From Octopus sinensis (taxonomy: Eukaryota), in NCBI RefSeq assembly GCF_006345805.1, contig NC_042998.1, forward strand, positions 115,568,001-115,632,000: a stretch of 64,000 bases of DNA, given 5' to 3'. Within the stretch, counting starts at the first letter, position 1. Every line of letters begins with the position of its first letter. Shown in pieces: positions 36,148 through 61,645 of the stretch. The notes beneath the pieces were generated by a model. The model worked only from the letters and a program-made list of their open reading frames with translations. It was not told where the DNA came from and searched no databases. The position numbers were made by a program, and so were the translations under genes.

Positions 36148-37432
36148 TCAGGTCATCCTATATGTTCTGTCCGATTTTACCCATTTTTAAAAAATTGAAT
36201 GATGTTTAATAGTATTTTAGAATGTCTAAAATTATTTTTATGCATTTGTGTACATATAAACTAATAAAATATTATATTTCAGAATAATAGAATTAAAATG
36301 TCTTTGATTAAAAACCTTTTTAACATGGAAGTATCTAAAGAGCATTCAAGGCGCATAATACTTTATGAGTACAAAAGAAGGAAACTCTGCAGTCGAAGCG
36401 ACTCAAAATATACACTCAGTTTATGGGAAAGAATGCTTGAATGAAAGAAATTGCAGGAGATAGTTTGCAAAATTCAGAAGTGGAGATTTCAGCCTTAAAG
36501 ATGAAGATCGAACAGGACGTCCAGTTGAGTTTGATGATAAGCTCCTTGAGGAATTACTTGAAGAAAATCCTACATTATCAGTTGAAGAATTGGCAATAAA
36601 GCTTAGTTTAAACCATACAACTGTTCATCATCATCTTCAAAAACTTGGAATGGTCCCTAAACTTGGAAAATGGGTGCCTCATGAATTGTCCGAAAGCAAC
36701 CGCAAATCCCGAATTGACATCTACTCTTCTCTCCATTCTTGCGAACTCATTTCAGCCTTTTTGGATAGACTTGTGACTGTCGACGAGAAATGGATCTTCT
36801 ATCGAAATGTTAAACGTCGTAAACAGTGGCTTGGTAAAAGGGAAAAAAAAACTCAACCACAACCGAGAAAGGAACTTCATGGAAAAAAGGTTCTTCTCTC
36901 TATCTGGCGGGATTGAAATGGAGTAATTCACTTTGAATTGTTACTACCTAATGCAACAATCAATGCTAAAGTCTAGTGTCAGCAATTAGAGCGTTTGAAC
37001 CAAGTTTTGAAGAAAAAAAGACCCGCTTTAGTGAATCGAAAAGGAGTGATGTTTCATCAGGACAGTGCGCGACCCCACACTGCAAAGATCAGATTACAGA
37101 AGATTGAAAAGCTTGGTTGGGAAAAAATTCCCCCTCCACCTTATTCTCCCGACCTTGCTCCTTCAGACTACCATTTGTTTCGTAGTTTATAGAACCATTT
37201 GGGAGAAATAACTTTCGCAAGCCAGGAGGAGGTCGAAACTGACATTTCAGAGTTCTCCGCTTTGAAACCAAAAGAGTTTTACATTGATGAGATTAAAAAG
37301 CCTGTAAATAGATGGAAGGAAGTCATAGATAATCAGGGAAAGTACATTGATAATCAAATTTCAATTAAATGTAACATTTGATCACATGTCTTCTTTATTC
37401 AAAATTCGGGCGGAACTTATGGGATGACCTGC
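36148..37432 (+). mobile_element. Full-length mariner (DD34D) transposon with disrupted transposase
   Basis: ~30-bp TIRs (tcaggtcatcctatatgttctgtccg / cgggcggaacttatgggatgacctgc), TA flanks, ~1.28 kb; ATG at 36325; WVPHEL, TVDEKW, HQDSARPH, YSPDLAPSDYHLF; stops and frameshifts. Confidence 0.95.
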
Positions 37433-44558: not shown

Positions 44559-44620
<62 letters not shown>

Positions 44621-44626
<6 letters not shown>

Positions 44627-44810
44627 ATAGAAGGAGCTTCTACAGGACTAGAACTGTTTCATTCAAATGAAATCATCAGGAAGATGATTTCATTTGAATG
44701 AAACAGTTCTAGTCCTGTAGAAGCTCCTTCTATAAAATAAATTAATTTACTCTGCTATGTATTGAGTACCTTATTTACTGTGGTTAACCCCGACTCAACC
44801 CGGGACCTAC
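44621..44810. mobile_element. Perfect 57-bp fold-back hammerhead element inside (TA)n
   Basis: Arms 44621-44677 / 44683-44739 are exact reverse complements; loop AGGAA; (TA)n on both sides. Confidence 0.9.
44637..44683 (-). ncRNA. Type-I hammerhead ribozyme, intact core
   Basis: cttc CTGATGA t ttc attt gaa t GAAAC ag ttctagtc ct GTA gaag: stem I cttc/gaag, stem III acag/ctgt, GUA site. Confidence 0.8.
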
Positions 44811-46306: not shown

Positions 46307-46474
46307 CTTAAAACCTAGAGTTAAACAAATTCAAACAATCTTTTATTAATTCATTATATTTTTGATTGAGAGTTTGAAAAAGATGCTGATATTTTGTAGT
46401 TCGTCTGAGAATGTTGATATTGAACACACACACAAATACATACATATATTTATATATACAAATATATATATATT

Positions 46475-46845
46475 TTGAAAAATTTCCCCAAAGATCCTTC
46501 AAAAATTTTTTTTTTATTTTTCAGAAATTTTGGGGAAAACTTTCAAAAAATTTTCAGAAATTTGGGGGGAAAATTTTCAAAAAAGTTTTCTAAAATTTTT
46601 GGGAAATTTTCCAAAAAATTTTGAATGACTTTTGGGTAAAATTTTTTTTTTTTCAAAAACCTTTTTCCAAAAATTTTTCAGAAATTTTTCAAAAATTTTT
46701 GGGTAAAACTTTCGAAAAATTTTTCAAAAATTTTGGTTAAAATTTTCAAAAAATTTTTCAAAAATATTGGGGAAAATTTTCAAAAAATTTTCATAAAATT
46801 TTTCAAAAATTTTTTCTAAAATTTTGGGGAAAATTTTCAACAATT
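46475..46845. repeat. Degenerate A-tract/T-tract minisatellite (TTTTCAAAAAATTTT / GGGGAAAA units)
   Basis: Visible tandem self-complementary units. Confidence 0.8.
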
Positions 46846-47556
46846 GTCAAACAATAAAAATATATACAATTAAATGAGAATGAGTGATTAACAACAAATG
46901 AAGCGGAGGACGCGGTTGACTCCACAAACCACACACTCACGCCGAAGACTTTGCTTTCTCCTTTTTTACATTCTCGTTTAAACAAGTTCTTTCACTCGCA
47001 ACATACTTGTTATATACTTCCATCTTTTACGAAACCTCACTTTGCGACAGGCATTTCTTCTCCAGCCTTATTTTCCGTTTCATGTGGAAAACGAAAAAGT
47101 CGATTAGCTCGAGACTGGAGATGAACATGTTGTAATTCCTTTCACTCTCGTCTTTCACAGCAACTACCGAGAGAAAACAGGCTCGCTCCTCCCTATTCAG
47201 GGAGGTCGGCGGAACGATCTTAATTACAGATTCGCTCGACAGTTGTACTCTTAATGAAAAAAGAGAAACAGAGAGTGCCTGTCTGTTATTGAAATTAAAT
47301 TCTGTTGACCGTGGTTGATAATTTTTAGCAACAGTAAAGCCACGATGAAAGTTATTGCACAGTCCTACCTATTTTATGTAGGACGACCACGTTCATATTA
47401 TTTGTCTGTAGTTTAATATATTTGTTTAATTGGATGAGAATTTCGTTGCAATTGAGAGCAAATGTGGTGACATATTTAGTCATTTCAAATAAGGTTTATC
47501 TAATCTCCAGTCGTTCCAATTTGTCGTCACGTATTCAGACACTCATTCACACACAC

Positions 47557-47612
<56 letters not shown>

Positions 47613-47669
47613 GTAAGTATATCTTATGTTCTATATATATATATTGGTATTTGTGTGCTATCTGAGTAT

Positions 47670-47728
47670 ATTCCACTGATGAAGGCAGAAAATTTCTTAT
47701 GCATAGCCAGAAATCCGGGATATGGAAT
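47670..47728 (+). ncRNA. Type-I hammerhead ribozyme, intact core (copy 1)
   Basis: attcca CTGATGA a ggc...gcc a GAAAT ccggg ATA tggaat. Confidence 0.8.
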
Positions 47729-48157
47729 TATACAGTAATTTTTTTGCTAGTTTATTTTGTCTCTTTGTCTTGTCTCCTGGTGCTGTATGAACATTTAATG
47801 CGATTTTAGAGTCAAGTTTTGACTGCTATTTCCAGCGTGGTTGTATCTCTTAGATACCCTAAATTATTATTTTGATAATTATTATTACCTTTGAAGGTTT
47901 TTATTCCCATGCTGGCCAACTGATCGGTATTTAAATATTGATCTTATCCTTATTTATATAAATTTATATATTTAATTCGTCATTATATATTTAATTCGTC
48001 ATTTAATTTGTCATTATATATTTATTTCGCAAATGCGGTGGTATTTTGACCATATCGCACGAGGAGTTTTAGGCTGGCAATTTAAACTGGTCGTGTGTTT
48101 ACGTGCAAGTATATGTATGTATACGTTCGTATATGTAAGTGTATTGTATGTTGTATG

Positions 48158-48190
<33 letters not shown>

Positions 48191-48235
48191 TATATAATAT
48201 ATATATATATATGTATTTATGTGCTATCTGTGTAT

Positions 48236-48293
48236 ATTCCACTGATGAAGGCAGAGCATTTCTTATGCTGAATCAGAAATCCGGATCTGGAAT
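48236..48293 (+). ncRNA. Type-I hammerhead ribozyme, intact core (copy 2)
   Basis: attcca CTGATGA aggcag agcat ttctt atgct gaatca GAAAT CCGG ATC tggaat; palindromic stem III ATCCGGAT. Confidence 0.8.
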
Positions 48294-48434
48294 TATCCAG
48301 TAATTTTTTGCTAGTTTATTTTATCTCTTTGTCTTCTCTCCTGGTGCTGTATGAACATTTAATGTGGTTTTAGAGTCACGTTTTGACTGCTATTTCCAGC
48401 GTGGTGGTATCTCTTAGATACCCTAAATTCTAAT

Positions 48435-48468
<34 letters not shown>

Positions 48469-48908
48469 ATATATGTATATATAAACACAAACATACACAC
48501 ACACATACACGCGCACACGGACATGTAGATAGTTTGATGAATAGATTAGTGCTTGTGGTGCATGCCCGTAACGTTAATTTACGTTCTCTTCCATTAAACC
48601 ATGAAGCCAATAATTCATGAGGTGCAGACACAATGGCAAAAGTCCAAACGAAAGCATATCTAAATCGTAATACATTTTGACAGATTTGAACTGGAATATT
48701 CAATCACTGTTTTTTTGGCGTCTTTGGAGATATCCTACCTCCCTTTAAATGTTATGTGTTCATAACAGGATTTATCGATGTAATGGGACTTCGAGACATT
48801 GCGGTGTTTTAACCTCATTTTGTGTCTTCTCTGTCAAAGGTACCCCGCCAGACCGATGAATCTTAATAAGAGCAGAAGCACTTGTTTATAGGAATCAGAA
48901 ACGAATTA

Positions 48909-49133: not shown

Positions 49134-50995
49134 CATGTACCTCTGCCTGCAAATGTCTGCAAACACATAATACCCCATGCAGTATTTGGACTAGCACGTG
49201 AACTCCATGAATTATTATCTCTTTGGCAGATATCAGCAAGCTTCGACAATGGTAGCTTTGTCTGAGGAGACGCATAATGCCGTTTAAACACCCATTTCAA
49301 AAGTGAATCACACGTTAATGACCTGACATCGTCTAAAGGGAAATGGTGTTCTTCGATGATACAAGCAACTATGATCGGAGATTCACGTTCGAATCTGCCA
49401 GAACATATTAAGAATGAATGAAAATACTTGTGAAGATAATACCTTACTCGTTAAATCGTGTTCCTCCTGTTTGGGCGTTTATTGTTCAATATATTTACAC
49501 TATGTGTATGTATGTGCTTGTACACACACGCACACACACACAAATACAGACACACACACACACATACACACACAACTGTTTCTATGTATAAAGTAGTCAG
49601 TAATCGTCAGTGTATACATCCGCTCAAAAACTCATGAACGGAGACGCCTAAAGAAAAACTAAGCCCAGATTCGTTATCAGCTGGAAAAAAAATATCTAAA
49701 AGAATAAAATCGCTTGCGTCCACTATGGCCCAGAAAATTTCTCTCCCCCACCCCCAAAATCTGCTTGTGGTTATTCCAGATAACGACATGAAATTTGATA
49801 TGCCACTTAATAGTTTGCTGATAATCTAATGACTTTTTTGCTAGCCTTGTAGGTGTTCTATGTACAGAGAGAACAGAATTTTTAATAGGAGCAGAATGTC
49901 TTTAAGAGTAAAAGAATTTTTAGTAGGAGCAGACTATTTTTAAGGGGACACAGAATTTTTAGGAGATGCATAAAGTTTTCAGTAGGAGCAGAAAATTTTG
50001 TTCAGAACATTTTGAGAATGAGCAGAAAATATTTAAGAGGGTTAAAAAATCTTTTTATTTTCTATTAAGAGCAGAAAAACTTTTAAGTAGTTCCCAATTT
50101 TTGTAGGGCTTAAAACTTTTTATGTACAGACAATTTTTTACGAAGAACAAACATTTTTTAGAAAGACAAAACTTTTTATAGAAATACGTATAGAAATTTG
50201 AAAATTTGTATTTGGGGTGAGAAAATTAAAAAAAAATTTTGATTTTAAATTTGTATAAAGAAATATTATATTGATATTGATAGTGTAAATAAAGTTATTG
50301 ATTTGTTTAAAGATTTATAGTGATTTTATGCTATAGCTATACTGTTTTTTAAAAAATAAAGTTAAGAATTCAAGTTAAATCGATATCATGTGAGATAGTT
50401 TTTCATTATTTTTCTAGCATAAGTGTTTTTTTCTCATTGCTTGATTTACTTTATTGTTTTGTAAAACAAATTCTGATTTTATATATAAGTAAATTTGGTA
50501 GCTATGTCAAATAGTTTTTAAAAGATTAGATTCTATATCTTCACAAATATAAAACAATCGCCTGTGTGTGCCTGTAATCATGCGTACGTGTTCGCTCGAA
50601 AAGCTCGACAACAGGTCGCCACAGAGAACAATTAAGGCCAGATTTATAATTTGGAAATCAGATAAAACTTTTTATTCTGTTTTCAACCATGATTTCTAGA
50701 AAGAGGAGATTCTGGATTTTGAAACCTTTCATGGATTTCCAAGTTTTATCGAATGGATGCACTTCTGCATGAAATAAACGAGAGAGTAAAGTTAGTAACG
50801 AGGTCAATAAATAATAAAATTATCAGATTTAATTTATTAATAAAACAAATTTATTTAACATGGCTTAATTTTACTTTAATTAATGGTAGATGAAAATCAA
50901 ATTATTGCGGGACATTTTAATCCGGCACCAAGGGTGTATGTATGTATGCATGTATGTATGTTTATGTATATGTATGTGTGTGTGTGCGTGTATGT

Positions 50996-52424: not shown

Positions 52425-52732
52425 TTAACTGGCAGGACATCGGTACTTTTTGCTCAATTCATCTAATTTTCTACCGGCAAAATTTGTATAAGTCCTGTAA
52501 TATGTGTCTGATGGTAAGATTAACTGAATCTCGCGTTTTTCATGAGGATTTATGTAACCGATGACCAAATAATCTTTGCCCTTTATCAACTTGGGACAAT
52601 GGCAGCCCTTTGCCAAGTAAATGAATTCTCTCGACATCAGTGGTAAAGTGTAGCGGTAAAGTTTTCTCACGGCGACATCGTAGCGGACTTGGTTTTTCAC
52701 TTTACTCACAGACCTCACACTTATATGACTCA
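52425..52732 (-). CDS. ADAMTSL5: Terminal coding exon: NTR (UNC-6/NTR/C345C) domain, ADAMTS-like protein 5-like
   Basis: Acceptor tttcttctttcAG (AG at 52734-52733), phase 1, open to TAA at 52427-52425; RYDV..PLMSREFIY..CHCPKL..DYLVIG..QLILP..YYRTY..RCP parallels the ADAMTSL5 C-terminal NTR as I recall it; domain call firmer than orthology; upstream exons not found in window. Confidence 0.75.
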
Positions 52733-52765
52733 CTGAAAGAAGAAATAATAATAATAATAATAATG

Positions 52766-54227: not shown

Positions 54228-57200
54228 ATGTCCGGAGATAAAACTATCAACAAAAAAATACAGACGAATATAGATCTGCTAGTCTTAAGAAGCGGCGCTA
54301 TGAGCAATGCTTACATGTAGTGAACCCTAAACTGACAGAGCCATCTCCTAATATAAGAATGGATGCTCGTCATGCTTCAAGGTCAACAAATCAAACAATA
54401 AACCGCATTGGTCATTGCGCGGATTACAAAAGACCACGTACCCGAAAATTGAACCAAATCCTGATTGAAAAATCAGTTACTGGATCAAATCTTCCCAACA
54501 CACAGGAGCTGGACGAACCCCACAACCGGAATATTCCAACAGATGGCCATCCATGCTCATCACCAAATAATCAAAAGAAAAAGAAGGAAAAATGGTCTAG
54601 GGAAGATAATAAAGAAGTTCTAGAGGCCTTCTACCATGCCATATATTTCCCCACAGATAAGTCTAGCACTGTACAAGCATACTTAAACTGGAGACAGAAC
54701 ACCCTGAAGTAAGACCCTACATAGACAGTAACAAGCTTGCCAATGTTAGAAGAAACATTATAAAAAAGAATTACTGACTGAAGTAGAGATTGATCAGGTT
54801 AGACAAGCAATATCGGATAAAATGAACGAAGCTGCAGCTACAGAAGATAATACAGAGGAAATGATTATAGACCAGCCCAGGGCGGATAAAAACGAAGAGA
54901 GGATTGAAAGAGTTAGTATAAGTGATAGGCAAAGTGAAATACGCCCTGAACCAATCATAAACACTAAGACAGATGAGCATCAAATAGATAAAGAAAGTCA
55001 CACAAATATTGACCCAACAGAACTACATGAGCTAAAAAATCAAATCATGATTGAATGGCTGAAAATTAAAGAACCAGCATGGATGAGCGTGATACACTTC
55101 CTAAAATCCGCAACTCTAACCAAAACATGAAAATAATTGGTAAAATCCGGCTTGCACTTAAGGATATAATTTCAGTTAATGATGTTGATATCACAAACCT
55201 CAACCACCTATACTATGCATCCGCGAAAATCTCAACGATCCTATGTGGTGTAAAGATTAGAAAACGGCAACAGTCCCACAAAAAGCCTTCTTGGCAAGAG
55301 CGTCTGCAACAACAAATTAAAGTGTTTAGATCTGACATTGAATATTTGAAAAACCTTAAGGCTCACAAGACTGCCAAACCTACAAAACCCCAAAATTACT
55401 GAAAAAATACAATATGAAAACTATACTTGATATTGATGCCACCATAGAAACCATCAAACAAAAGGTATCTGCCAAAGCTGCCCGCATAGCGAGGTATGAA
55501 AAGCGTGTTAGATTTTTCAAGGACAACAACATGTTCAAAAATAACACCAAGAATTTTTACAGGAAGATAGGAAAAACAGCGTTTACTGCAGGGTCTGTAC
55601 CATCAAAAGAAGAAGTGCAGAGATTTTGGAATAAAATCTGGGCAGAAGAAAAAACACGCAACGAAAAGGCCCCCTGGATTGACAGAATATCTACAGAACT
55701 GGACCCCTTAGAAGAGCAAAAGTGGGAGGGTGTCAAGGTAGAAGATATAAGATCTGCTCTCAGGAGGTCAAGCAAATGGAAGTCTCCAGGAAAGGATAAA
55801 ATTCCTAACTTCTGGCTGAATGCCTTCCCAGAGAGCCATGAACTGCTAACAGAACTGTAAAATGATGTTTTGCAACACCCTAGTAGGATGCCTCCTTGGC
55901 TAGTTAATGGGTTAACATTCCTGCTTCCAAAAAGTGAAGAAACAAATGAACCAAAAAACTATAGACCCATAACCTGCTTAACAACTATGTACAAAACACT
56001 AACATCTGTCCTGACGGAATATACCTATAGTTTTTTAACAGACAGCAGCATATTCCCTAATGAACAGAAAGGATGTAAACGTGGATCCTACGGCTGTAAA
56101 GACCAACTACTCATCAATAAGATGATCTTAGAAGATTGTCACAAACGACACAAAAACTTATCAATAGCCTGGATAGACTATAAAAAGGCTTTTGATAGCC
56201 TACCACATAGCTGGATTAGGAAATGCCTTGAAATGTATAAGATAGCACCAACTCTGCGAAACTTCTTGACTGTAAGTATGAGATCATGGAGAACCACACT
56301 AACTCTGAACAGTGACAGTGAATCCCTAAATGCTGGTGATGTAAAAATTTCGTGTGGCATTTTCCAGGGTGACTCACTGTCACCACTCCTCTTTTGTTTA
56401 TCCTTAATACCTCTCTCAAAGCTGCTCAATGACGCGCAGTACGGGTATAAAATGTTTGATAAAAATATAAATCATCTCGTTTACATGGATGATTTAAAGC
56501 TTTTTGCAAAAAATGATCAACAACTCAAGGGCTTACTAGCGATAGTCAAACAATTCAGTGACGACATCAGAATGCAATTCGGCCTCGATAAATGTGCAAA
56601 GGCTACCTTTATCAAAGGAAAAATGACAGAAACATCTAACGTTAACCTTGACCAACAGAATGTCATTAAAGAACTAGACCCAGCGGAGAGCTACAAGTAC
56701 CTAGGGGTAATTGAAGGGAACGGAATAAGGCATTCAGAGATGAAGGAAAGGATCAGGAGAGAATGCTATCGAAGAGTGAGAGCAATACTCAAGACAGAGC
56801 TGAATGCAAGAAACAGGATCGAAGCAATCAATGCATTAGCTATACCAGTCGTGACTTACAGTTTCAATATTGTTAACTGGTCAATTACTGAAATATGTCA
56901 GCTCGACAGAAAAATAAGGAAACTGTTGACAATGCATAGAATGCACCACCCTAAGGCAGATACAGAACGACTCTATCTGCCAAGAAAAGAGGGAGGCCGT
57001 GGTCTTTTGCAACTGGCAATAACAATGAAGATTGCTACAATTGGCCTAGACACCTACCTGAAAAACTCTGAGGACTGGATGTTAAAACTTGTCTCAAAAC
57101 ATGAAAACAAGAAAGCATCATACTCAGTCACAAAACAGGCAAAGGAATATCTAAGTGAATTCCGAATACAACCAATTTCGGAATTAGAGATAGACATACA

Positions 57201-58257
57201 AGAAACAAGCACAGAAAAAGCTAGGCGCATGAAAACCCGTGCCAAAACTGCGGCCTTAGATATTCTGAATAATAAATGGCAAGAAAAACCTCTCTATGGC
57301 AAATACCCAAAGAGAGCGAATAATGCAGATATCGACAAAGCCCTGACCCATCAATGGCTAATGGCCTCTGGCTTAAAATCTGAAACAGAGGGGTTTATCA
57401 TAGCAGCTCAAGATCAATGCCTACCAACAAGAAACTACCAGGCCAACATATTAAAGATCAGAAGCAGTCCAACGTGTCGTGTATGCAAGCAACAAAATGA
57501 AACCATTGACCATGTGGTCTCCAAGTGCAGTCTTCTAGCGCCTACAGAGTATCTCAACAGGCACGATAGAGCTGCACAATATATTCACTGGGTAATCTGT
57601 AAAAACCTGGATTTGCCCCATGAAAAAAACTGGTGGGAACACAAACCACCCCCAGTGCTTGAAAATGACCACATCTCACTCCTCTGGAACTTCACCATTC
57701 AAACTGACAGGAAGATAGATGCAAATAGGCCAGACATCATATTGAAAGACTTCAAACAAAGAACATGCCTCCTCATTGATATGACTGTCCCAATCGATAT
57801 AAACGTATCTGTCAGGACCTACCAAAAACTGAGCAAATATAAAGATCTTGAAATAGAAATCAGCAAAATGTGGAAGCTGAAGACTAAAACAATACCTGTT
57901 GTCATAGGTGCCCTGGGAATGATAGCAAAAGGGGCTGATAGCTACCTAACTCAGATACCAGGAAACCCAAAAATGGCAGAAGTTCAAAAGATAGTGCTCA
58001 TGGGAACTGCTCATATCCTACGCAAAATACTCTCTATGTAACCTCAAGGTTTAAAACAACCATAATTTTCGGTTTAAAAAAAAAAAAAAAAAAAAAAATT
58101 TTTTTTTTAGACATTCATTAGTACAACATCCCCACCCCCCAAATATATGGCACACTAGGCATAACAACAACATGAACTTCCAACCCTGTTGTCCCTTGAG
58201 GTCTCTGGGTGAGACTTGGAGCCAACTTGTACAAATATAAAGCAAAAGTCAAACATA

Positions 58258-59309: not shown

Positions 59310-61645
59310 GAAACATCTGACTGGTTAGTAAGAGTTATTACTTACCTACGCCCCAAGAATAATGAAACCAAATGTTCCCCAAACTATCGGACCATGACAT
59401 GTCTGTCTACCACGTCTAAAATTTTAACATCCATCCTCGTAGAGAAAACATACTAATATATGGAACAGAACGATATTTTCTCCGCTGAACATAAAGGGTG
59501 CCGACGCGACTCATATGGATGCAAAGACCAACTCTTAATCAATCGCATGATCCTTGAGAATTGTCATCACAAACGCAAAAATCTCAGCTCTACATGGATT
59601 GATAATAAAAAGCTTTTGACAGAATGCTGGATATTTTCATAATTTCTCCAGTGATTTCAAATTTCCTGAAGCACAACATGTCAGTGTGGAATACGAATCT
59701 CCAGTTATACCACTCTAATGAAGTACTGACCACAAAAGATATTAGTATCAACTGCGGCATTTTCCAAGGTGACTCACTTTCACCTTTAATCTTTTGCATA
59801 GCCCTAATACCCCTTACAAGTGAGCTTAACAGAACAGGGTGTGGATATAAAATTGGCGACAAGAAAATAAGTCATCTATTTTATATGGATGACTTAAAAC
59901 TAGGTGTCAAAGATGATAATGAACTTGAAGGACTACTACGTACTCTGATAGCATTCAGTGATGATATCGGGATGGAATTTGGTCTTGATAAATGTGTCAA
60001 GGCCACTTTCCAGAAAGGGAAATTGAAGACCTCACATTCAGTGGTGTTGGATGTTGGCACAGTCATAAAAGACTCGAACAGGAACAAACTTACAAATACC
60101 TCGGAATAAATGAGGGCTCTGGCATTCAACATGCAAACATGAAAGAGAAGATCAAGAAGGAATGTTACAGGAGCGCTCGAGCAGTCTGGAAATCTGAGTA
60201 CAATGCACGTAACAAGGTGTTAGCTATAGATTCCTTAGCGGTTCCGGTTGTTATTTAATTTCAATGTATTGAATTGGAATATCAGCGAAATAAGGACGAT
60301 TAACAGGAAAATCCGTAAGCCGCTGACATACAAATGATGCACCACTCAAAGGCAGATGTAGATCGTCTTTACCAGAGCTCAAAAAGGTCGCGGCTTCATC
60401 CAATTGGAAATCTCTTACAAAACCACTACAATTGGACTGGCAAAATATCTTGAAACATTTAACGACTGGATGCTAAAGATCGTTGAAAACTACAAGAGAC
60501 GTAAGAAGCTTCATTTGTTATGAAGGAGAGCAAAAAATCAGTTAGTGAGTTTAGGCATAACAGACAGATTAAACAGCATGATGGAAGTACGACAACTGTA
60601 GTTGCAGGGGTGAAATCAATAGTAAAGCAAAATGCGTTTGAACAATTGGCTGATAGATGGGAATAAAAACCGCTGCATTGCAAATATGTGGTTCGAAGGA
60701 AACAAGCCGATGTAGACCAGAAGTACACCCATCAGTGGCTACGGAGTTCAGGGCTAAGAGCAGAGCACGAAGGCTTTATTTTGGCTGCTCAAGATCAGAG
60801 CATATTGACCTGGAACTATCAAGCCAATGTGATGAAAAATGTAGTAGACTCAAGAAGGAACGTTGGGTTTGAAACAGTGAACAACCTAATCTCTGGGTAT
60901 AAGGTTTTAGCACCTATAGAGTACAAATCAAGACATGACAGAGTTGGCCAAAATCTACATTGGATAATGTGCCGGCATTATAAAATCAAGACCCCTAACA
61001 AATAAGTCGGCATTATAAAATCAAAACCGCTGACAAATGAGGCTGTAGCTGAGGGAGAAATTATAACGTTTATTTGGGACTTTCCAGTAGGTACAGACCA
61101 GACCATCAAAGTAAATAAACCAGATATTGTTGTGAAAGACTAAAACAATAAAGTCTGTTTATTGATTGATATGAGCTTACCTTATGACCATAATATCTCA
61201 GCAAAACCGCTTGATAAGCTCAGAAAATATAAAGATTTGGCAATCGAAATTAAAAAGATGTGGCATCTCAAGACGGCTACAATACCAATGATTGTAGGAG
61301 CACTGTGAATGATCAAAAAAAGAACTGAATTTTTTTAAGAATGATCACTGGCTTACTATCCATACAGGAAGAGCAAAAGATTGTCTTAAGTGGTACGTCA
61401 CACGTAGTGAGAAGAGCATTGTCGCTGTGAATTTTCTTTCCTTTTGTTCCCTTTATTTTTCTTTTTACTTTTATATATTTAATTATTTTCCTTTTCTCTC
61501 TGTCTTACTTCCCCTTTTTCTCTATCACACGACTTTGTAAATGAACAATTTTGTGTGATTCTTTTAATGGCCAGCCAATATATACAGTGCGTTTGCCCTT
61601 GGTGTCAGGAAGACACACGGCAAGAAATGGAAGCAAAACTGAAAG
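59310..61645 (+). pseudogene. Second, decayed 5'-truncated R4/Dong-like LINE
   Basis: GCKDQLLIN, GIFQGDSLSP, FYMDDLKL, YKYLG, EGFILAAQDQ, RHD, NKPDIVV; many stops; (AAT/GAT)n tail. Confidence 0.9.

Follow-up and report, generated by a model that had tools for sequence, protein, structure and literature searches.

The tandem hammerhead pair described here is likely a mutated 1.4-unit copy of a dispersed non-coding repeat family that carries one hammerhead ribozyme per ~480-495-nt unit. A Penelope-like element (PLE) likely supplied the enzyme that inserted this copy, which is probably inactive now. All coordinates are positions in the window, the 64-kb stretch of Octopus sinensis DNA analyzed in this study (forward strand), and genome-wide statements refer to the 2.72-Gb, microsatellite-rich assembly.

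The ribozyme pair in the window

Two same-strand repeats (47632-47871 and 48198-48435) were 90.8% identical over 240 columns, TA lead-in included, and each contained a CUGAUGA...GAAA core, at 47676-47713 in copy 1 and at 48242-48279 in copy 2. Cleavage was predicted after 47722 (AUA; AUC in the family) and after 48287 (AUC), 565 nt apart, and no stop-to-stop frame of at least 110 aa was found within the cut-to-cut interval. In these respects, the reading of the first-pass annotation, which had described two same-strand repeats with two predicted cuts and no ORF between them, was borne out. The cut-to-cut unit (47723-48287, + strand) was non-coding, with a GC content of 28%. No Rfam family reached its gathering score in the window, and at E ≤ 10 no hammerhead family was matched within 47550-48500, where the weak matches were microsatellite-driven only.

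Both copies carried the type I core (CUGANGA, GAAA, and UH) and three helices, open at helix I, which was 6 bp in each. Hammerhead 1 (47670-47728, + strand), a PLE-like minimal form, comprised helix I (47670-75/47723-28), the core (47676-82) with an extra A (47683), helix II (47684-47708), a second extra A (47709), GAAA (47710-13), and a near-palindromic helix III (47713-21); the proximal 3 bp of helix II were whole and its distal part was broken at 47690-91. Hammerhead 2 (48236-48293, + strand) comprised helix I (48236-41/48288-93), the core (48242-48), helix II (48250-74), GAAA (48276-79), and helix III (48279-86); the third proximal pair of helix II was broken and the second was G.U. Helix II pairs numbered 3+2 in copy 1 and 2+4 in copy 2, compared with 3+4 in the family. 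The earlier description of an intact core with a 6-bp stem I is therefore correct as regards the letters of the core and helix I, whereas helix II is damaged in both copies. Helix III was 2-3 bp or dimeric. A perfect 8-nt palindrome, which had been claimed for stem III in general as suited to a dimer, was restricted to copy 2; copy 1 and most family copies had a 9-nt near-palindrome with a central G.G, yet dimer pairing was still possible (-9.4 kcal/mol when the two window copies pair; range -9.4 to -10.9). An A on each side of helix II placed A.A at the usually paired 10.1-11.1 position in the window motifs.

Copy 1 differed from the column majority by 11 substitutions, including the change from AUC to AUA and two that broke distal helix II, and copy 2 by seven, including the loss of the third proximal helix II pair. 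On the 3' side of its cut, copy 1 also has a private A at 47732. The hammerhead-shaped fold reached -3.9 and -3.3 kcal/mol in the window copies, compared with -9.2 in two intact relatives, and was never the lowest-energy fold in either the window copies or the relatives. In one viroid study (PMC1636495), AUA occurs naturally as a slower triplet, so this change alone does not kill copy 1. The window pair is probably inactive, although its core letters and helix I are intact and the energy models ignore tertiary contacts.

The surroundings of the pair followed the layout of a repeat unit. At the 5' boundary, a (CA)n and (TA)n microsatellite (47548-47644) adjoined a copy that was truncated at the unit's own TA tract, which makes a target-site duplication unreadable there. 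Downstream of the first cut, on the + strand, a hairpin (47843-57) preceded the family's preferred 3' end 1 (~47865-73; feature 47843-47873), and a second hairpin preceded preferred 3' end 2 (~47955-66; feature 47922-47966); we infer that these are reverse-transcription starts 1 and 2. A short locus-specific duplication just past end 2 (47964-48029) added 41 alignment columns relative to eight other units. It was followed by the 3' part of the unit (48030-48153, modules D1 and D2), which many other copies carry 5' of the ribozyme, and by the internal (TA)n tract (48154-48220), expanded here and short in several other units. The terminal partial repeat (48288-48435, + strand; hairpin at 48406-22) ended at preferred 3' end 1, directly followed by a (TA)n tract (48435-48483) that presumably served as the target.

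Other features were recorded in the window. A non-LTR retrotransposon (54242-58041, + strand) retained a 726-aa open reverse transcriptase (RT) frame that matched Pfam RVT_1 (E 4e-28) and zf-RVT; a related but broken element lay at 59609-61005 (+ strand). The C-terminus resembles that of elements with a restriction-like endonuclease. A Mariner-type transposase fragment (Pfam Transposase_1) was found at 36464-36916 (+ strand), a low-complexity 11/23/34-nt repeat of T and A runs at 46449-46850, a degenerate 20/38-nt repeat at 49866-50200, and a 67-nt inverted repeat (94% complementary, 5-nt spacer) at 44611-44749. A bacterial promoter scan was disregarded as irrelevant for an animal host.

A dispersed family of non-coding units

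The repeat and the spacer together form a single non-coding unit (477-497 nt elsewhere; 565 nt in the window) of a dispersed family; the stretch between the two repeats belongs to this unit and is not unique DNA. Exact genome counts were 103 for a 23-mer, 357 for the helix I plus core pattern, and 544 for a 16-mer, compared with 0, 0, and 2 for the reversed controls, which also places the hammerhead pair above chance. Similarity searches yielded 2603 (repeat), 1995 (spacer), and 3327 (full unit) first-look candidates, with the best 40 scored in each, so that young copies may be missed. The family comprises at least hundreds of copies and probably one to a few thousand.

Five modules mapped onto the loci gave a periodic unit, ribozyme-B-C-D-(TA)n-ribozyme, with many different 5' entry points. 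Copies longer than one unit were collinear and permuted, with periods that clustered at 477-497 nt (overall 477-596 nt), and the 477-497-nt period recurred at unlinked loci in both subfamilies. The 565 nt of the window result from the 41-column local duplication and the TA expansion. The predicted 565-nt monomer thus corresponds to one whole unit, although its length is a local accident.

In 170 locus records, some of them overlapping and many picked through spacer or full-unit queries, two same-strand ribozyme pieces were found at 17 distinct loci. Thirteen of these, the window counted, were collinear units with the pieces 477-763 nt apart (both motifs full length in eight), and the remaining four comprised one case of deletion, one with later insertions, one local duplication, and one pair that is unrelated. 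The repeat-spacer-repeat layout, for which the first-pass annotation had suggested looking elsewhere, therefore recurs, and its concern that other copies might always be solo did not hold, although solo truncated copies still prevail (50/51 unselected insertions). Two-ribozyme loci are rare (1/51, a frequency that rests on this 51-locus sample), and no three-ribozyme locus or trimer was found in the 170 records, in which few copies exceed one unit. An apparent young subfamily of 10 loci proved to be one segmental duplication, and nine of these loci were removed before counting. This duplication (L128, L146, L147, L163, L177, and L180-L184) is multi-kilobase, with 92-98% identity and five copies on contig C29, and it amplified one element copy bearing a 30-nt deletion. 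At another locus (L045, C4:76521884-76525107), a 1.9-unit family copy was split by two subsequent insertions, of which one had terminal inverted repeats and the other a different hammerhead-like core.

In the family, helix II consists of three pairs, a 3x3 internal loop, four pairs, and a 5-6-nt loop. Among 109 copies not selected by core pattern, 106 had an A before G12, and an extra A after A9 was present in one subfamily (71 of the 94 copies with an intact core) and missing from another (the other 23). The minimal form of PLE hammerheads has been described as having a long helix II, an extra nucleotide between 9 and 10.1, a G-C closing pair, and a short palindromic helix III (Cervera 2014, PMC4209133); the family shows seven helix II pairs, the extra A, the G-C closing pair, and a near-palindromic helix III. 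The base pair that adjoins the core at 10.1-11.1, which is demanded by the filter of Perreault 2011 (PMC3088659), is replaced by A.A in the window motifs. U.U is reported to be tolerated at this position (PMC7229834, PMC3088659), and other PLE hammerhead candidates in the same genome had U.U, C.A, or U.C at the helix II base.

Common variants affected N7, the A9b indel, the internal loop, loop 2, a wobble, and a loop 3 CpG, and left the core unchanged, which suggests selection on the ribozyme in past source elements; two common variants did break helix pairs (47706 G>T and 47724 G>A, 10/109 each). Among 47 copies, decay from the column majority was 4.8% (17% at CpG columns versus 4.5%). The core was no better kept than the rest (3.1% versus 4.0%), nearest-neighbor copies were at least 3.3% apart, and the tree was star-like, with 85% of its length on terminal branches. 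Judged from these substitution patterns, the genomic copies are decaying neutrally. All helices and AUC were kept in 46/110 copies, and neither window copy was among them.

No description of the family was found in the literature searched; Lunse 2017 (PLE hammerhead variants), Repbase, and the figures and supplements of Cervera 2014 may cover the family or the variant. As far as the available portions of these texts go, the family is not described in a review (PMC6765202) or in an octopus repeat annotation (PMC13282606), the latter of which does not mention ribozymes.

Autonomous PLEs were present in the genome. Their open 775-781-aa frames contain RT and GIY-YIG domains, with a Cys motif ahead of the endonuclease like that reported for Neptune (PMC8557442), and they have 3' hammerhead candidates of their own with (TA)n after them. 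The element itself has no RT plus GIY-YIG frame, and tblastn with PLE frames gave no match in the window. No sequence common to the family and an autonomous PLE was found at the 66 GIY-YIG loci compared (66 of 150 listed; 5029 candidates), and tblastn with two PLE frames against 120 + 20 element loci revealed no autonomous partner. PLE fragments beside element copies resembled unrelated neighbors, and the outward flanks shared on either side among 168 insertions resembled other repeats, with no partner among them. It is very improbable, in our view, that the copies are truncated terminal repeats of an ORF-bearing PLE that were locally duplicated, the 480-nt unit never having been mobile alone. 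PLE hammerheads in animal genomes are indeed mostly solo remnants (PMC4209133), and local amplification of terminal repeats has been proposed (Li 2026); however, wherever a copy exceeds one unit, the upstream sequence re-enters the 5' modules of the unit itself and contains no ORF, no linked RT frame was found in the 4.5 kb upstream of ~80 further copies, and the characteristic period is repeated at unlinked loci of both subfamilies.

The PLE families with open 775-781-aa RT and GIY-YIG frames were seen at L091-L096 (C6, C10, C8, and C1). Many GIY-YIG endonuclease matches had identical scores, suggesting a recent burst. The hammerhead candidate of one PLE family had a U3-A8 core swap and that of another had U.U at the helix II base, each followed by a tail and (TA)n. 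Hammerhead candidates near further GIY-YIG loci (L073, L075, L102, L120, and L122) had a 1x1 mismatch at the helix II base and a 6-nt palindromic helix III.

Insertion marks and the template RNA

Insertion boundaries were scored at 51 loci, namely 60 of the 100 listed 23-mer matches (chromosomal, new loci) minus nine segmental-duplication copies. The 3' ends fell at 47862-85 (end 1) in 23 cases and at 47950-66 (end 2) in 12, with 15 elsewhere and one in a second unit. These two fixed 3' ends, ~145 and ~240 nt past the cut, together account for 35/51 insertions; each is preceded by a small hairpin, the tail between them is ~95 nt, and a TA-like tract follows in 27 of the 35. A head-to-head inverted 5' piece was present in 15/51 insertions, and 14 of these 15 pieces ended at the same two sites. 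TA runs lay within 40 nt of 143/336 flanks, compared with 6% of window 40-mers, an excess partly due to the unit's own TA tract.

The family thus displays partial tandems with terminal redundancy, 5' truncation, an inverted 5' segment, and two fixed 3' ends, as a non-autonomous PLE would. For PLEs, the marks reported are insertion as partial tandems, with inverted 5' pieces and a tail, at (TA)n targets (Craig 2021, PMC8557442); PLE tails have been given as 30-40 bp, shorter than the ~95 nt found here. A PLE enzyme is reported to cut AT-rich DNA, including its own terminal repeat (Frangieh 2024, PMC11167929), and to begin reverse transcription at two stem-loops that lie within the RNA, 3' of the ribozyme, and define the tail; its main substrate is uncut RNA, and its ribozyme cleaves only with the protein (PMC11167929). 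We infer that a PLE mobilized the family. A PLE reverse transcriptase-endonuclease would nick a (TA)n tract, copying would begin inside the RNA at one of the two hairpin-flanked sites, ~145 or ~240 nt past the cut, and reverse transcription would proceed 5', past the cut and on into the unit before it. The majority of copies would halt within one unit, and the window copy would have reached the previous ribozyme. The ribozyme of the source elements was likely functional, as a slow, dimer- or protein-assisted cutter, and has likely decayed in the window copy.

The state of the template was approached through the cut site. The four bases on the 5' side of the cut were retained next to 436 of the 544 exact 16-mers that lie immediately 3' of it (80%, where decay of 5% predicts ~81%), and none of the first 30 insertions inspected started at the cut. 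The absence of a pile-up implies that the template RNA was continuous across the site, whether uncut, re-ligated, or bridged by a jump, and that a cut linear monomer would not be the usual substrate of insertion. We lean toward an uncut read-through RNA of a partial tandem as the template. A re-ligated circle is a tentative second option, and re-ligation of PLE hammerhead RNA has been proposed (PMC4209133); bridging by a template jump seems doubtful.

The circular option can be extended to the movement of the family as a whole, which may possibly, although we hold this with reserve, have proceeded via a ~480-495-nt circular monomer copied in rolling-circle fashion, with the window representing 1.4 turns. 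Such a route has been proposed for non-LTR retrozymes, and circles have been demonstrated for coral, mussel, and axolotl retrozymes (PMC7229834). It agrees with the copies being circular permutations continuous over the cut, and with the repeats of one locus usually sharing subfamily variants (47688 in 10/11 tandem pairs and 47818 in 18/19), because one molecule read twice, in a circle or by a jump, would yield shared variants. The lack of a three-ribozyme locus in the 170 records speaks against it with little power, and the unit fold lends it no support from covariation (double changes in 4/115 pairs; covariation term +2.5). A further objection comes from site 47707 (47707/48273 in the window), a non-CpG C/T site in both subfamilies that forms G-C or G.U in helix II. 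This site was discordant within the locus in 13/28 pairs, the same rate as among unrelated copies, which is not explained by one nucleotide being read twice.

The discordance at 47707 was found in 6/13 tandem and 7/15 inverted pairs, compared with ~16% and ~12% at other non-CpG polymorphic columns, a signal that was noticed after the fact among 20 scored columns. T upstream and C downstream occurred in 10 pairs and the reverse in one, the window; three further discordant pairs had another base or unclear polarity. Hypermutability of AGCCA/GCC as a cause was unsupported, as 47822 was stable within loci and the GCC background was 7-8% (31 and 79 sites). It is conceivable, although we think it unlikely, that cleavage activity persists, through dimerization or with the help of PLE protein, in the hammerhead variant whose general base G12 always has an unpaired A next to it, that surviving two-ribozyme copies release a 480-500-nt circular RNA in the octopus, and that the polarized C/T difference at 47707 between the two ribozymes of one insertion records how the PLE enzyme reads its template. 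If true, the linear-versus-circle question for PLE transposition would be testable from genomes.

The window locus itself likely arose in one insertion event. The first-pass annotation had raised two independent insertions as a caveat, on account of the TA tracts; the collinear interior, with no module missing or doubled, favors a single event, and the distance between the repeats fails to support it. The window repeats differ by 7.5%, no less than unrelated copies do (ranks 22 and 50 of 108), whereas two pairs that clearly stem from a single event have ranks of 0-2; the star-like tree, however, gives distance little power. A two-step origin within the same family, in which a second, 5'-truncated copy was inserted at the AT-rich 3' end of the first, would also fit the locus-specific 41-nt duplication just past preferred end 2, the reported cutting of AT-rich DNA by the PLE protein in its own terminal repeat (PMC11167929), and the window being the only one among 11 pairs in which, at 47707, the upstream copy has C and the downstream copy T. 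We nevertheless regard two steps as rather unlikely, given that both repeats share the subfamily state at 17/20 polymorphic columns, including the minor A at 47822, and that this layout is repeated at 12 further loci.

Release of a self-excised 565-nt circle by the window locus, as originally predicted, is possible but unlikely: both ribozymes are mutated, nothing points to transcription, and none of the 30 copies inspected started at the cut. In its full form, with the locus transcribed, both hammerheads cutting as a dimer, and a 565-nt monomer released and likely circularized, this reading is improbable. It can draw on the core letters, helix I, and dimer-type helix III present in both copies, on an interval of one full unit, and on the axolotl retrozyme, which tolerates a helix II base mismatch and cleaves better as a dimer (PMC7229834). 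However, helix II is damaged in both window motifs, the 11 and seven substitutions are as in other decaying copies, and 8/9 Xenopus dimers failed to cleave in vitro (Li 2026). The z-score of the 565-nt circular fold (-8.2) was equaled by unrelated TA-containing controls (-4.4, -8.7, and -5.0) and was rejected as evidence, being a TA artifact. The TA-free part did beat shuffles (z -4.9 sense and -2.7 antisense; six controls -2.7 to +0.9), with covariation absent. The nearest gene piece found, the last coding exon of an NTR/C345C gene (52425-52740, - strand; Pfam E 1e-9), lies on the opposite strand, so read-through from this gene would be antisense to the ribozymes. Assembled contigs from 4/24 runs, none on record as RNA, contained family-level pieces only and none that spanned the stretch, which is no evidence either way, and no splice-like joint was found in them at a suspected donor near 47735. 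The window copy is probably a fossil.

Relation to retrozymes and Penelope-like elements

The family behaves as a non-autonomous PLE and fits a wide definition of animal non-LTR retrozymes. It shares with the latter (Cervera and de la Pena 2020, PMC7229834; Li, Clavereau and Pollet 2026, bioRxiv 10.64898/2026.07.22.740005) a non-coding, low-GC sequence, one type I hammerhead per head-to-tail unit, a short palindromic helix III suited to a dimer, co-occurrence with autonomous PLEs, and the lack of a protein. Retrozyme RNAs are given as 170-400 nt (PMC7229834) and units as 51-972 bp (2026 preprint), compared with 480-565 nt here; the family period of 477-596 nt falls within the wider range of the preprint. 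In contrast, canonical hammerheads with loop 1-loop 2 contacts, in units of 150-450 bp and long arrays, are not seen in the family, which has a minimal PLE-type ribozyme, dispersed copies mostly shorter than one unit, at most two ribozymes, and no arrays. Expressed linear and circular monomer RNA is a retrozyme feature, whereas the family is known here from genome sequence alone.

Neptune-type PLEs with their pLTR hammerheads (PMC4209133, PMC8557442, PMC11167929) resemble the family in their partial tandems and 5' truncation, in a 5' piece that is inverted, in having two fixed 3' ends beyond the ribozyme and (TA)n neighbors, and in a long helix II and an extra nucleotide after A9. They differ in that the family has no RT-endonuclease frame, a tail of ~95 rather than 30-40, a constant unpaired A before G12, and no partner PLE identified. 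Chlamys PLEs such as MRC1 are likewise reported to have short non-autonomous derivatives, pLTRs, and head-to-tail insertions (PMC8557442); that clade is mostly without hammerheads and its derivatives share 3' sequence with known autonomous families, whereas the octopus family is from an animal and has a hammerhead, with no partner found. Plant LTR retrozymes, as summarized in PMC7229834 and the 2026 preprint, also have two ribozymes in direct repeats, a non-coding middle, and a monomer near 600 nt; they carry a type III ribozyme, true LTRs, a 4-bp target duplication, and a GC content above 55%, in contrast to the type I ribozyme, 28% GC, and permuted units of the window element. The type I ribozyme and the GC content rule out a plant-type LTR retrozyme, and the layout is that of a PLE-type partial tandem rather than of an LTR retrozyme.

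A retrozyme layout and Penelope-like insertion scars are thus joined in one family, which supports the proposal that animal retrozymes are parasites of PLEs. The ribozyme variant, which has an unpaired A before G12 and may or may not have the extra A that follows A9, lends itself to a simple assay, and the hundreds of copies offer a genomic test of the nature of the PLE template.
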